This document shows, one piece after another, positions 4,752 through 26,442 of a stretch of DNA of 27,326 nucleotides. Positions within the stretch are counted from its first letter, which is position 1. Each line of letters starts with the position of its first letter. A program made the position numbers and the translations under genes. The notes beneath the pieces are model-generated. The model was given only the letters and a program-made list of their open reading frames with translations, searched no databases and was not told the origin of the DNA. The stretch spans positions 1 to 27,326 of the forward strand of contig CAZVRN010000001.1 of NCBI GenBank assembly GCA_964629485.1, written 5' to 3'. Source of the DNA: an uncultured Thermodesulfobacteriota bacterium (GTDB taxonomy: Bacteria > Desulfobacterota > Desulfarculia > Adiutricales > JAFDHD01).

Positions 4752-4825
4752 GAGACCTTTGCAAAATTTCGTCCTTTGACTGATTTGGGTCAGGCTTCCG
4801 AGTAGTCATTACAACATTATTGTCG
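4752..4825 (-). mobile_element. Miniature inverted-repeat element, copy A (diverged, one end eroded)
   Basis: GAGACCTTTGCAAAATTTCGTCCTTTGACTGA...GTCAGGCTTCCG...ACAACATTATTGTCG aligns by eye with the reverse complement of the copy at 18534-18620. Confidence 0.6.
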
Positions 4826-4928: not shown

Positions 4929-5447
4929 ATGACAACGGGTCTTGCTCCGCACCCTTTTTATGCACCCACGGTGCCGCATCAGGCTTTCATGATTTTTCAA
5001 TGCATGTTCGCGGTAATCACCCCGGCCCTTATTACCGGGGCCTTTGCCGAAAGAATGCGTTTCGGGCCTTTATCCGCGGCCCTGATCGGCATCCTGGCCG
5101 GAGCCGGCTGTTACCTGGGTATCCTGATCAAGAACAAGTTCGGATATGACGACAGCTTCGACGTGGTCGGTATTCATGGTGTCGGGGAGGTGATCGGGTT
5201 GCTTTGCGTAGGGCTTTTAGCCAGCAGCCTGGTCAATCCCGGTGGGGCGAACGGGTTGTTTTTCGGGAATCCGGCACAACTGGTCCTTCAGCTCTTGGCC
5301 ATTTTGGTTACGATGGCTTATTCTTTTATTGGAACCTATATCTTGCTTAAACTGGTCGATCAAATTTTGGGACTGAGACTTACTGAAAGTGATGAGATTC
5401 AGGGATTGGATTTAAGCCAGCATAAAGAGGTGGCATATGAAATTTAA
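4929..5447 (+). pseudogene. amtB: Ammonium transporter (Amt) remnant: 5'-truncated, with an in-frame central deletion
   Basis: YAPTVPHQAFMIFQCMFAVITPALITGAFAERMRF (early Amt helix) is fused directly to GPLSAALIGILAG..CY..KNKFGYDDSFDVVGIHGVG...GLDLSQHKEVAY (C-terminal Amt helices). It is only 172 aa, versus about 400 aa for intact Amt. Confidence 0.85.
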
Positions 5448-5452
5448 CTGGA

Positions 5453-5503
5453 AAAACCCCTTAAGAACCAGTAATTTTTAGGACTAAGTTCTTAAGGGGT
5501 CTC
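5453..5503 (+). mobile_element. Miniature inverted-repeat element, copy E (51-bp short form)
   Basis: 13-bp perfect inverted repeat ACCCCTTAAGAAC / GTTCTTAAGGGGT. The interior GTAATTTTT-AGGACTAAG corresponds to the two ends of the longer copies. Confidence 0.65.
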
Positions 5504-12223: not shown

Positions 12224-12255
12224 TGCAATAAAATTATTTGTTCTTAAGAAGCCTT
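12224..12255 (-). mobile_element. Miniature inverted-repeat element, copy F (one terminus only)
   Basis: Reverse complement AAGGCTTCTTAAGAACAAATAATTTTATTGCA matches the left end of copies C and H. AATAATTTTATTG is shared with H. Confidence 0.5.
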
Positions 12256-15577: not shown

Positions 15578-15716
15578 GGGACCCGGCAAAATTAAACCTT
15601 TAACCGAATTTATTACCAGGCTCAAAGTTACTTCCCCGAAATATTGGTAATATTCTCGTGGGTTAGATTTCCACCGCTTGCAAGCCCAATAAAATTATTG
15701 GTTTTTAGAGGGCCTC
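15578..15716 (-). mobile_element. Miniature inverted-repeat element, copy H (139-bp long form, diverged)
   Basis: Ends GGGACCCGGCAAAATT..CCTTTAACCGAA and AAAATTATTGGTTTTTAGAGGGCCTC match the family termini. The interior matches copy G. Confidence 0.55.
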
Positions 15717-16464: not shown

Positions 16465-16609
16465 CCGCATGACACCTGAAACGGCTATCTTCTTTGTTGA
16501 CCTGCCGTCGCCAAGACGATATAATTTTAATTATCAAGAAAATTTTTTCTTCAATGAAGCCCTGTTCCCACGGAAAATAATAACCGGGGCATGGCTGGAA
16601 TTGCATATT

Positions 16610-16692
16610 GAGACTCCTTAAGAACCGCTGATTTTGTTGAAATCGCGGAAAGCGACAATGAGTTCAGCTAAAGGACGAAGTTCTTAAGTCTC
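16610..16692 (+). mobile_element. Miniature inverted-repeat element, copy B (83 bp) with 5-bp TSD ATATT
   Basis: GAGACTCCTTAAGAAC...GTTCTTAAGTCTC, flanked by ATATT at 16605-16609 and 16693-16697. Confidence 0.8.
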
Positions 16693-16793
16693 ATATTGCT
16701 TTCCCAAAAACGGGCTGGCATCAAGCGCGGCAAAGGTCCGCCATGGCCTTGGTCTTAAAATATCGCGTTTCACTTGACCAGGGGAGGTAAACC

Positions 16794-18365
16794 ATGAACT
16801 TGGCTGAATTGGCCGAACAGTCGGCCGAACGTCTGGGTGAACGGATGAATTTGGTTTTTGAGGGCGAGCAGTTCACGAATTTTCAGTTTCTCGATTGGGC
16901 GCGGCGTCTGCACCGTGGTTTCGCCGGCCTCGGTCTTGCCAGGGGAGACATAGCCGTACTCTGCATGGCCAATCATCCCCTGGCTTTTGCTGTTTTTCAA
17001 GGCATTTTCCGAACCGGAGGCACCGCCATACCGGTCATGTTTATGATGTCTGCGGCTGAATTGCGATACGTGCTCAGCGATTCCAAGGCCAGGGGCGTAA
17101 TTACTGACGAGGCCAATGTGTCCAAGGTCAGGGAAGCTGTCCAGGGCCTTGATCACATCAGGTGGATGGTTGTCCTCGGGGGCGAAGACAATCCTGGATC
17201 ATCCCCGCCCGAATACCGGCTCGAAACGTTTTTAGACAATGAACCGGAAACAAATTTGCCGCAGATCAGCGAAGATGACCCGGCTTTGATGCTTTACACC
17301 GCGGGGACTACCGGAAAACCCAAGGGTGTTATGCTGACCCACGCCAATCTCATTGCTTCGGCCGAGGCGGCCAACGAGGCTTCGGAACTGGATCGGTGGG
17401 AGGGGCCGTATATAGGCATGAGCGCCATGCCCATGGCTCACATTTTCGGCGTTGGCGTTATGAACAGCGGCTATCTGGCCCCGGAGCATATAGCCGATGG
17501 TTACAGCGTTCAAATGAGCTGGTTCGAGCCTGAGCGGTTTATGCAGCTTATAGAACAGCATCGCTGTACGGTTATGGTGGCCGTGCCGACCATGCTCGCT
17601 CTGATACTAAACCATCCCAGGGTTGAACAATATAACCTTTCTTCTCTTAAAATGGTGGTTTGCGGAGCTTCTCCGCTGCCGGTCGAGATGGCCCGGGCTT
17701 TTTCCGAGCGCTATGGTTGCCGCATTCGGGAAATTTACGGCCTGACGGAAAATACCGGGCTTGGTTCGGCCAACCGCCTTTCTGAACCTTACCGTCCCGG
17801 TTCCGCGGGTCGGGCCTATTTCAATACCGAATTGAAAATTTTTGACCAGGATGACAAACCCCTGCCCGCGAATGAAATCGGCGAGGTGGTCATGCGCGGA
17901 CCAGCGGTCATGAAAGGCTATTATAACCGCCCGGAAGAAACGGCTGAAGCCTTACGTCACGGCTGGCTTCATACCGGGGACATGGGTTATCTGGATGAAG
18001 ACGGTTATCTCTTCATTGTTGATCGGAAAAAGGATATGATTATTCGGGGTGGAGAGAATATATATCCCGGGGAACTGGAAGAAATTATTTACGCGGTTAA
18101 AGGGGTGGCCGAGGCGGCGGTGGTCGGAGTGCCTGACCCGATTTACGGCGAGAGTGTGATTGCTTTTGTAGTCCCTGGTCCCGGGGCGAACCTTTCTGAA
18201 CAGGAAATAACTGATTTCATGCGGACCAGGACGGCGTCGTTTAAGGTGCCAGCGAAAATTCACTTCACGGATAGCCTTCCCAAGAGTCCGGTGGGCAAGG
18301 TCCTGAAGCGAGAGTTAAGAAAAAAAGCCTTAGTCGAGGAGGAGGGAAAGGAACTCCGGGTATAG
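16794..18365 (+). CDS. Long-chain fatty acid--CoA ligase (class I adenylate-forming enzyme)
   Basis: YTAGTTGKPKG, YGLTE, GWLHTGDMG, DRKKDMIIRGGENIYP and PKSPVGKVLK. GGAGG RBS present. Confidence 0.93.
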   Translation: MNLAELAEQSAERLGERMNLVFEGEQFTNFQFLDWARRLHRGFAGLGLARGDIAVLCMANHPLAFAVFQGIFRTGGTAIPVMFMMSAAELRYVLSDSKARGVITDEANVSKVREAVQGLDHIRWMVVLGGEDNPGSSPPEYRLETFLDNEPETNLPQISEDDPALMLYTAGTTGKPKGVMLTHANLIASAEAANEASELDRWEGPYIGMSAMPMAHIFGVGVMNSGYLAPEHIADGYSVQMSWFEPERFMQLIEQHRCTVMVAVPTMLALILNHPRVEQYNLSSLKMVVCGASPLPVEMARAFSERYGCRIREIYGLTENTGLGSANRLSEPYRPGSAGRAYFNTELKIFDQDDKPLPANEIGEVVMRGPAVMKGYYNRPEETAEALRHGWLHTGDMGYLDEDGYLFIVDRKKDMIIRGGENIYPGELEEIIYAVKGVAEAAVVGVPDPIYGESVIAFVVPGPGANLSEQEITDFMRTRTASFKVPAKIHFTDSLPKSPVGKVLKRELRKKALVEEEGKELRV

Positions 18366-18533
18366 CGTTGCCCCCGTATAAATTTTTCCTACAGCCAAGC
18401 TGCGGAGCCATGGCGGCGAACCCACTGGACCCGCTCAATAATAATGACCGGGGCAGTTTAGGTGTTCATTGCCTTCGGGAGTTAAGGAAAAGTCAAAGAT
18501 AAAAAATTCTCCCGCCGCGTGAATTTCAGAGAA

Positions 18534-18620
18534 AAGGCCTCTTAAGAACGACTAATTTTGTTGAAATCCCGGAAGGCTGACAATGACTTCGGCTAAAGGA
18601 CAAAGTTTTTAAGAGGTCTT
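18534..18620 (+). mobile_element. Miniature inverted-repeat element, copy C (87 bp) with 5-bp TSD GAGAA
   Basis: AAGGCCTCTTAAGAAC...GTTTTTAAGAGGTCTT (14/16 inverted match), flanked by GAGAA at 18529-18533 and 18621-18625. Confidence 0.82.
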
Positions 18621-18651
18621 GAGAAAAAGTTTTACAGATAAAAGGCTCTCC

Positions 18652-18680
18652 TTGACACGCGCTTAAATAGCACGTATATT
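18652..18680 (+). promoter_or_regulatory. Near-consensus sigma70 promoter
   Basis: TTGACA (18652-57), 17-bp spacer, TATATT (18675-80). Confidence 0.7.
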
Positions 18681-18732
18681 CCCGGCATTCAGTTCTGATT
18701 CATTAATAATAATGCTTAGTTGTCAGGAGGAA

Positions 18733-18921
18733 ATGTACAAAATGACCGCAGCCGCCGCACACACCGGAAAAGACGAAACGGGAGCGCCGATATCAGGCCT
18801 GTTTTACAAGAATCCCTCCATCGGAAAGCCATTTCCCTGGACACTGGGTCGTCCTGTTGCCGCCGAAATTGAACCCTCCTTCAAGGATGAAGATTTTATA
18901 TTCATCCTTGAGGTTATTTAG
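18733..18921 (+). CDS. Possible small leader ORF (62 aa, unknown)
   Basis: AGGAGG at 18725-30 precedes ATGs at 18733 and 18742. It ends 15 bp before the biotin carboxylase start. No homology recognised. Confidence 0.3.
   Translation: MYKMTAAAAHTGKDETGAPISGLFYKNPSIGKPFPWTLGRPVAAEIEPSFKDEDFIFILEVI
18881..18911. repeat. 11-bp perfect inverted repeat
   Basis: TCAAGGATGAA-N9-TTCATCCTTGA, ending 25 bp before the biotin carboxylase ATG. Confidence 0.7.
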
Positions 18922-20301: not shown

Positions 20302-20417
20302 GGGCTATCTCAAAATTACTGTTTTAGCCTAACCTGCGGTAATATATTAAATATTTCAAGGAATTGAATTTGGACCTAACAATGAGGCCGGTTTGAAGGC
20401 CAAATTATTAAGAGGTT
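20302..20417 (+). mobile_element. Miniature inverted-repeat element, copy G (long form, degenerate)
   Basis: Fills the gap between the convergent accC and rex stops. The right part ACAATGAG..CGG...AAGG.CAAA.T.TTAAGAGGT matches copies B and C. About 47/71 nt match the reverse complement of copy H in a nearly ungapped hand alignment. Confidence 0.5.
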
Positions 20418-26356: not shown

Positions 26357-26442
26357 AGGACCTCTGAAAAATAAGTAATTTTGTTAAATTCGCGAAATCT
26401 GGCCATGAGTTTGGCTAAAGGACAAAGTTCTTAAGAGGCCTC
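26357..26442 (+). mobile_element. Miniature inverted-repeat element, copy D (86 bp)
   Basis: AGGACCTCTGAAAAAT...TAATTTTGTT...GGCTAAAGGACAAAGTTCTTAAGAGGCCTC, closely colinear with copy C. Flanks GTAAC/GCAGC match at only 3/5. Confidence 0.75.

Follow-up and report, generated by a model that had tools for sequence, protein, structure and literature searches.

What does it mean that a gene lies between two copies of the same short repeat: was it carried to its place by them, or did the repeats arrive separately around a gene that was already there? The question is raised by positions 16605-18625 of a 27,326-nucleotide (nt) stretch of DNA from an Adiutricales metagenome-assembled genome (MAG; contig CAZVRN010000001.1, positions 1 to 27,326, hereafter the window), where two repeats, which we call copies B and C, bracket a gene for an acyl-CoA ligase. 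We consider it very probable that B and C are separate insertions of an ~86-nt miniature transposable element with inverted repeats (MITE) of IS5 type, and that the ligase is an ancestral gene flanked through the sheer density of this repeat family. The features concerned are as follows, where TSD stands for target-site duplication, ORF for open reading frame and aa for amino acids:

16605..16609, no strand: left TSD copy of MITE copy B, ATATT (direct sequence reading; abuts the consensus element boundary)
16610..16692, + strand: MITE copy B, 83 nt (nhmmer E=8.6e-24; alignment to the consensus)
16693..16697, no strand: right TSD copy of MITE copy B, ATATT (direct sequence reading)
16794..18365, + strand: acyl-CoA ligase gene (AMP-binding, 523 aa; ORF matching PF00501 and PF13193)
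18529..18533, no strand: left TSD copy of MITE copy C, GAGAA (direct sequence reading)
18534..18620, + strand: MITE copy C, 87 nt (nhmmer E=4.5e-23)
18621..18625, no strand: right TSD copy of MITE copy C, GAGAA (direct sequence reading)

The ligase ORF thus sits between B and C with all three on the + strand, and the coordinates and duplications that an earlier note on this DNA had given for B (ATATT) and C (GAGAA) proved exact, base by base. The element ends implied by the ATATT and GAGAA repeats are also the genome-wide consensus ends, GAGACC...GGTCTC. Copy B has the arms GAGACTCCTTAAGAAC (5') and GTTCTTAAG---TCTC (3', with a 3-nt deletion), and copy C, a member of the subfamily with A..T termini, has AAGGCCTCTTAAGAAC and GTTTTTAAGAGGTCTT; the terminal inverted repeats (TIRs) of both copies carry two to three changes per arm. 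To call the two copies intact, as that note did, is slightly generous, since identity to the family consensus is 87% for B and 89% for C, and B is short of 3 nt in its 3' arm, although both are indeed present where they were reported. That they are independent insertions is well supported, as their TSDs differ, they fall into different subfamilies (G..C vs. A..T termini), and their mutual identity amounts to only 79%, with a longest shared identical run of ~14 nt.

A dispersed family of short inverted-repeat elements

A profile made from three obvious window copies was run on the whole assembly from which the window comes (3.18 Mb in 510 contigs; G000), and nhmmer returned 395 matches at E<1, of which 276 had E<=1e-3 and 146 were full-length; merged, the matches formed 255 loci covering 18.9 kb in all. 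The consensus was built from 139 full-length copies aligned together with 40-nt flanks, and in this alignment conservation begins and ends abruptly and the flanks are A/T-rich. The resulting 86-nt consensus (GAGACCTCTTAAGAACCAGTAATTTTGTTGAAATCGCGGAAGCTGACAATGAGTTCGGCTAAAGGACGAAGTTCTTAAGAGGTCTC) has perfect TIRs of 16 nt, which in the MAG mostly read GAGACCTCTTAAGAAC. Nearly all of the full-length copies are intergenic (138/146). Size classes of 51, 83-87 and ~141 nt occur in the MAG, where an additional palindrome occupies the centre of ~15 copies of ~141 nt and many truncated solo halves are also present; no ORF was found in any of these classes, nor in the 173- and 205-nt forms of a congener (G002, below). 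Among the copies, the arms were of a derived type (CTTAAGAAC) on both sides in 83 cases, of an ancestral type (CTGCAAAAC) on both sides in 7 and mixed in 26, while the terminal base pair was G..C in 44 copies, A..T in 35 and mixed in 36. Outside the MAG, the arms take the form of the ancestral terminal repeat, GAGACCTCTGCAAAAC, and the common length is 141 nt. The 86-nt form of the MAG therefore derives, by internal deletion, from an element of 141 nt that is almost wholly palindromic, and CTTAAGAAC is a lineage-specific arm variant.

TSDs were assessed on 106 full-length copies anchored on their arms, against a null in which the right flanks were permuted among copies (300 permutations). Perfect 5-bp flank matches were found for 20/106 copies vs. 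0.55 expected (permutation maximum 4), and matches with at most one mismatch for 38/106 vs. 4.5 expected (permutation maximum 13). The enrichment is specific to 5 bp (5 vs. 1.1 expected at 4 bp, and 1 vs. 0.08 at 6 bp), and a first-pass count had given 19/139 vs. 0.56 expected. The earlier note had proposed that the flanks of all genomic copies be tabulated, and the tabulation leaves a clear excess of 5-bp duplications, which are diverse in sequence and A/T-rich (26% GC). Perfect 5-bp TSDs also flank copies in three related genomes (AAACC and GATTC in G012; AGATT and ATCTT in G003; ATTTA, AGTTT and AAGAC in G002).

The family is unevenly spread. It is abundant in G000 and in the congener G002 (Meg22_810_Bin_229, JAFDLS01), is present in a second genus of the same taxonomic family (G003, Candidatus Adiutricales SCS5bin.9, JAZGHI01), and has six copies in G012, which belongs to another family of the order; it was not found in the congener G001 or in 26 other genomes of the order. 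Two seemingly extra arms in G012 belong to ordinary copies of 141 nt. In G002 the copies measure 141, 173 or 205 nt, the forms differing by one or two nested 32-nt GC-rich hairpin modules (e.g. GCCGCTTAAGCGTCAGTGATGCGGCGCTCA), and these modules have the appearance of a second small palindromic repeat nested within the MITE.

For the empty-site test, the flanks of perfect-TSD copies were joined, and the first 13 such junctions (5205 nt) were searched against G001 and G002. This recovered a precise empty site, of the kind that the earlier note had suggested seeking in related strains, for another copy of the family. The copy in question lies between the rpoN stop and hpf (G000 C26 ~5266-5352, TSD GATAA), ahead of the hpf ribosome-binding site. 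Both congeners are without a MITE here, and the reconstructed empty site is collinear with them across the junction (82% identity with each, across 400 nt for G001 and 385 nt for G002). In the three-way alignment, the MITE plus one TSD forms a clean 92-nt insertion, and once these are removed the rpoN-hpf spacer is 47 nt in G000 and 47 nt in G001 (counted from the alignment). The element is, then, a non-coding prokaryotic MITE: it is small, has TIRs and a TSD of fixed length, and occurs in many dispersed copies with an empty site.

For copies B and C themselves, the reconstructed empty sites read ...GGAATTGCATATTGCTTTCCC... and ...GAATTTCAGAGAAAAAGTTTTAC..., and both sites were compared with relatives. 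At site B, GCA_019309185.1 (ligase 89% identical in aa sequence) and G001 (78%) keep the order of the FmdE and ligase genes and the promoter, and have no MITE. At site C, no MITE is present in G001, which shares the promoter and the downstream genes, and in the corresponding region of G002, 17 nt upstream of accC, lies a 173-nt copy that inserted independently and has a TSD of its own (AAGAC). No match was obtained when the ligase protein was looked up by exact sequence, and a degenerate search for ligase orthologues among JGI metagenome contigs yielded one G001-like contig of 1.2 kb.

The candidate mobilising transposase

The termini of the MITE point to the IS5 family of insertion sequences (ISs). 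The TIR of the IS5-family element ISNme1 has been published as GAGACCTTTGCAAAA, with related ISPg TIRs tabulated alongside (PMC4596501 Table 2), and the ancestral MITE arm GAGACCTCTGCAAAAC equals it at 14/15 positions. We scanned for DDE_Tnp_1 and then searched for arms around the matches. In G012, contig C10 carries a relic in which the degraded C-terminus of an IS5 transposase (best NCBIfam match NF033581) is followed, 155 nt on, by CTTTTGCAGAGGTCTC, and the MITE arm matches this right end at 15/16 positions; on contig C2 of the same genome lies an IS of 846 bp that has suffered an internal deletion, with the ends GAGACC/GAGGCC and the flanks GAAAA/AAAAA. Full-length homologues of 342 aa are 78-82% identical to the deleted G012 transposase over the aligned ~70% of the query. 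One representative (P0130) scores 250.5 bits on NF033581 (cut-off 140) and matches PF05598 and PF01609 (DUF772 + DDE_Tnp_1), and by this scoring the transposase tied to GAGACC-type termini is a bona fide IS5-family DDE enzyme.

Four copies in a long-read metagenome assembly (ENA ERZ21869602, loci L148-L151; P0130/P0127) define the corresponding IS as an element of 1252-1256 bp, with a left inverted repeat (IRL) of GAGACCTCTGCACGG, a right inverted repeat (IRR) ending in ...CCTTTTGCAGAAGACTT, and 5-bp TSDs in 4/4 copies (AAACC, TTTTT, AAAAT and AATAG). The MITE ends equal the IRL of L148-L150 at all 12 of the terminal nt (GAGACCTCTGCA), and MITE and IS also share the right-end motif TTTTGCAGA and, in A/T-rich targets, TSDs of 5 bp; the two hence agree in their termini, in TSD length and in the composition of their targets. 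The terminal pattern of a candidate parent element of 1.2-1.3 kb can be written as GAGACCTCT(T/G)... Unlike the MITE, the IS is autonomous (342-aa transposase), has an imperfect IRR (AAGTCTTCTGCAAAAGG), and is weakly similar in its subterminal sequence (13/18 over positions 17-34, vs. a shuffle mean of 9.1, with 17/1000 shuffles as good).

We reasoned that the ~86-nt MITE would be mobilised in trans by an IS5-family DDE transposase (NF033581 type, 342 aa, DUF772 + DDE_Tnp_1) that would recognise GAGACCTCTGCA-type ends and make a 5-bp staggered cut in A/T-rich intergenic DNA, the repair of which would leave a 5-bp TSD; copy B would have landed in the 5' leader of the ligase, and copy C between the 3' end of the ligase and the next promoter. 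The proposal of the earlier note, a transposase-type insertion with a 5-bp stagger, has gained support from three sides: the genome-wide 5-bp TSD, the empty site for the rpoN-hpf copy in two congeners, and an IS5-family IS with the same termini and 5-bp TSDs in all four copies.

In the MAG itself, the putative mobilising enzyme is represented only by 42 aa from the N-terminal (DUF772) domain of an IS5-type transposase; this fragment, 67% identical to the G012 copy, lies at a contig end (C346:3243-3368). Arm pairs 0.8-4 kb apart, which were considered as candidate autonomous elements of the MAG, enclose ordinary genes (hydroxylamine reductase, esterase, sigma factor and response regulators), and the unpaired half-matches are truncated solo copies, not the ends of an autonomous element. 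A self-megablast of the MAG found no repeat of at least 200 bp above 98% identity and nothing like a multi-copy IS; the matches that it did return are pairs or local tandem repeats at 73-98% identity. This particular IS lineage is our candidate for the mobiliser, judged from its sequence, and the family appears to be largely inactive in the MAG now.

Several points weigh against this reading. The similarity between MITE and IS is convincing only across the terminal 12-15 nt, the subterminal match being weak, and the full-length IS was recovered from a taxonomically unassigned metagenome assembly with no relation to the MAG. Searches of the MAG and of the three other MITE-bearing genomes turned up relics but no intact autonomous element with such ends. 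The ISfinder summary gives 4 bp as the typical TSD of the IS5 subgroup, so that the case for 5 bp is carried by the four IS copies examined. Lastly, a perfect TSD is kept by only ~19% of the copies, and at site B the intergenic DNA of both relatives is too diverged to display a single ATATT.

Rival readings: mobile cargo, other element families and host function

The arrangement itself invites a composite reading, in which B, the ligase and C form a MITE-bounded mobile or excisable unit that brought the ligase in or can move it: the two copies are direct-oriented, only 2 kb apart and have a single gene between them, and a transposase could in principle pair the outer ends of two TIR elements. 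The note had likewise suggested that the pair might permit excision or co-mobilisation of the gene. However, there is no common outer TSD, the left flank being ATATT and the right GAGAA, and each copy has a TSD of its own. The FmdE-ligase adjacency and the promoter, conserved in the two relatives without copy B, are older than the insertions. Nor does double flanking call for a special explanation. The family occupies 197/2482 intergenic regions, and 186/1063 of those of at least 100 nt (~18%), and genes flanked on both sides number 13 vs. 12.6 expected under independent occupancy, with no preference of orientation (7 direct, 6 inverted). Double flanking thus occurs at the chance rate, so the doubly flanked ligase is what the density of the family predicts, and the gene is flanked on both sides because the family fills ~18% of the intergenic regions of at least 100 nt. 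The remaining arm pairs at IS-like spacing likewise enclose ordinary genes; the MITEs are non-coding, and the MAG yielded only the 42-aa transposase fragment and no intact enzyme. Excision by recombination fares no better, as the identical runs between B and C (at most ~14 nt, in copies 79% identical) are below the RecA recombination minimum in Escherichia coli, which is roughly 25 bp. A self-megablast found no second copy of the B-ligase-C segment in the MAG. Taken together, co-mobilisation or excision of the ligase finds no support, the composite reading is largely refuted and we hold it to be most improbable; on this comparison of sequences the ligase is an ordinary, ancestral chromosomal gene, not cargo.

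Two further explanations concern the nature of the repeat. A miniature element derived from the Tn3 family (TIME-like) would share with the present one both the 5-bp TSD and the A/T-rich target, which are also Tn3-family traits. Yet its hallmark inverted repeat is ~38 nt long and begins with GGGG, whereas the TIR here is 16 nt and begins with GAGACC; no DDE_Tnp_Tn3 (PF01526) match was found either in the MAG or in the four related genomes scanned, where positive controls responded; and the termini match an IS5-family IS that itself gives 5-bp TSDs, all of which leaves a Tn3 origin with next to no credibility. The other explanation sees in the repeat above all a structured RNA or DNA element, spread and kept by host selection (for instance a hairpin in mRNA, a signal for processing or stability, or a site of protein binding), with the TSD-like flanks being incidental. 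Its appeal lies in the strong hairpin potential of the 86-nt consensus (-34 kcal/mol, z=-5.8) and of the 141-nt form, which folds as one long hairpin (-67.6 kcal/mol, z=-11.7), in the almost exclusively intergenic location of the copies, in the place of copy B within a 5' leader, and in a bias of orientation: between tandem genes, the sense strand of the MITE is co-oriented with the genes 53:18 in the MAG (p=4e-5), and for the loci obtained from G002 and G003 the ratio is 24:5 (p=5e-4). Against this stand the specific and highly enriched 5-bp TSDs, the precise insertion/empty-site polymorphism between species, a patchy spread (hundreds of candidate matches in G000 and G002, six in G012 and none in the congener G001), and the many copies that are truncated solo halves. 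The arms covary only partially, and we draw no structural claim from this; an Rfam scan of the repeats gave no match either at the gathering threshold or at E<=1, and on these grounds a structured RNA family was rejected. A host function as the main identity of the repeat is therefore unlikely, and a later function of some copies (exaptation) would not replace transposition as their origin.

Known relatives, orientation bias and local setting

As a MITE with IS5-type ends, the repeat forms a new family within a class of elements that is well known. IS5-family-derived MITEs include ATR of Neisseria meningitidis (proposed parent ISNme1) and BrickBuilt/MITEPgRS of Porphyromonas gingivalis (parents ISPg1/ISPg4/ISPg9), with 19 copies reported for each, and the flanks of BrickBuilt have been reported as variable, with 2, 4 and a run written AAAAA (PMC4596501). 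Like these, the present MITE is non-coding, intergenic and multi-copy, has TIRs that match IS5-family ISs, and shows nested or deleted size variants and extra internal modules. It differs from them in its sequence, which is unrelated beyond the termini, in its uncultivated host (Adiutricales, Desulfobacterota), in its ~255 loci vs. 19, in a clean 5-bp TSD unlike the variable BrickBuilt flanks, and in that the genome it occupies yielded no intact parent IS. Correia/NEMIS of Neisseria and ERIC of enterobacteria are abundant intergenic foldback MITEs of 100-200 nt that are often co-transcribed with their neighbours, and for which hairpin RNAs and orientation-dependent effects on mRNA processing have been documented (PMC10969869). 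The orientation bias of the present MITE is reminiscent of these effects. Both the termini and the TSDs of Correia/NEMIS and ERIC differ from those of the present MITE, the Correia TSD being TA.

The arms are symmetric, and therefore only the 54-nt interior differs between the two orientations; on the sense strand it is G-rich and C-poor (G15:C8). The bias, which is reproducible at 3-5:1, could reflect selection against C-rich antisense transcripts, or a role at the RNA level. That part of the family has been exapted as an orientation-dependent RNA-level element is a speculative and rather unlikely suggestion. If it were true, hundreds of copies would constitute genome-wide leader or intercistronic hairpins that tune transcript stability or polarity, and antisense copies would put a C-rich, G-poor tract (Rho-utilisation-like) into transcripts. 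The bias is the sole aspect of the family that could open new biology.

The local setting of the ligase includes one further feature that bears on copy B:

16497..16525, + strand: promoter-like site TTGACC-17-TATAAT (11/12 match), upstream of copy B (conserved as TTGACC-17-TATACT in two MITE-less relatives)

Copy B lies 85 nt downstream of this site, a strong one, and 101 nt upstream of the ligase ATG. Its RNA is predicted to fold into a hairpin (-28.7 kcal/mol, z=-4.3), and it is probably transcribed as such in the predicted 5' leader of the ligase mRNA. Between the ligase stop and copy C are 168 nt, and the next promoter-like site (18652-18680) follows 31 nt after the copy; lacking a U-tract, C does not qualify as a canonical terminator.

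In all, the window holds eight copies or fragments of the family, one in most of the consecutive intergenic regions from 15.5 to 20.5 kb. Those other than B and C are:

4752..4825, - strand: 5'-truncated copy that retains an ancestral-type 3' arm (ATTTTGCAAAGGTCTC) (window repeat survey)
5453..5503, + strand: minimal 51-nt copy, two arms and a short loop, between convergent genes (window repeat survey)
12224..12255, - strand: solo 5' fragment (profile match)
15578..15716, - strand: long-form copy, 139 nt, between a usp-like gene and fmdE; has the central palindrome that is absent from the 86-nt form (compared with 141-nt copies)
20302..20417, + strand: degenerate long-form copy, directly past the accC stop (window repeat survey)
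26357..26442, + strand: copy D, 86 nt; its 5' arm is degenerate and a TSD could not be recognised (profile match)

The family explains the dense repeats of the window, and knowing it guards against mis-reading the ligase, fmdE or accC as mobile cargo. The uncultivated Adiutricales of marine sediments thereby gain a defined, high-copy MITE with a traceable IS5-type source, and its series of nested deletions (141, 86 and 51 nt), together with its patchy spread within a genus, offers a marker for recent lineage history and strain typing. Copies often lie within ~100 nt of the ends of G000 contigs (e.g. C37:43-116, C190:6570-6651 and C101:9090-9165), and because so many sit there, the family is probably behind much of the fragmentation of the MAG.

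Two minor observations concern the neighbouring genes. In G001, the ligase orthologue (L015, G001:C133, ~2130-2640) is interrupted after about residue 212 by what, by motif alone, resembles the C-terminus of an IS630/Tc1-type transposase (...PPYSPELNPVEHIW...). In the window, a small ORF ahead of accC (18712-18921) looks like a truncated biotin-carboxyl-carrier-like gene; its G001 orthologue keeps ...ALLETMKVFQ... (the biotinyl-lysine motif region), a segment that the window copy is without.

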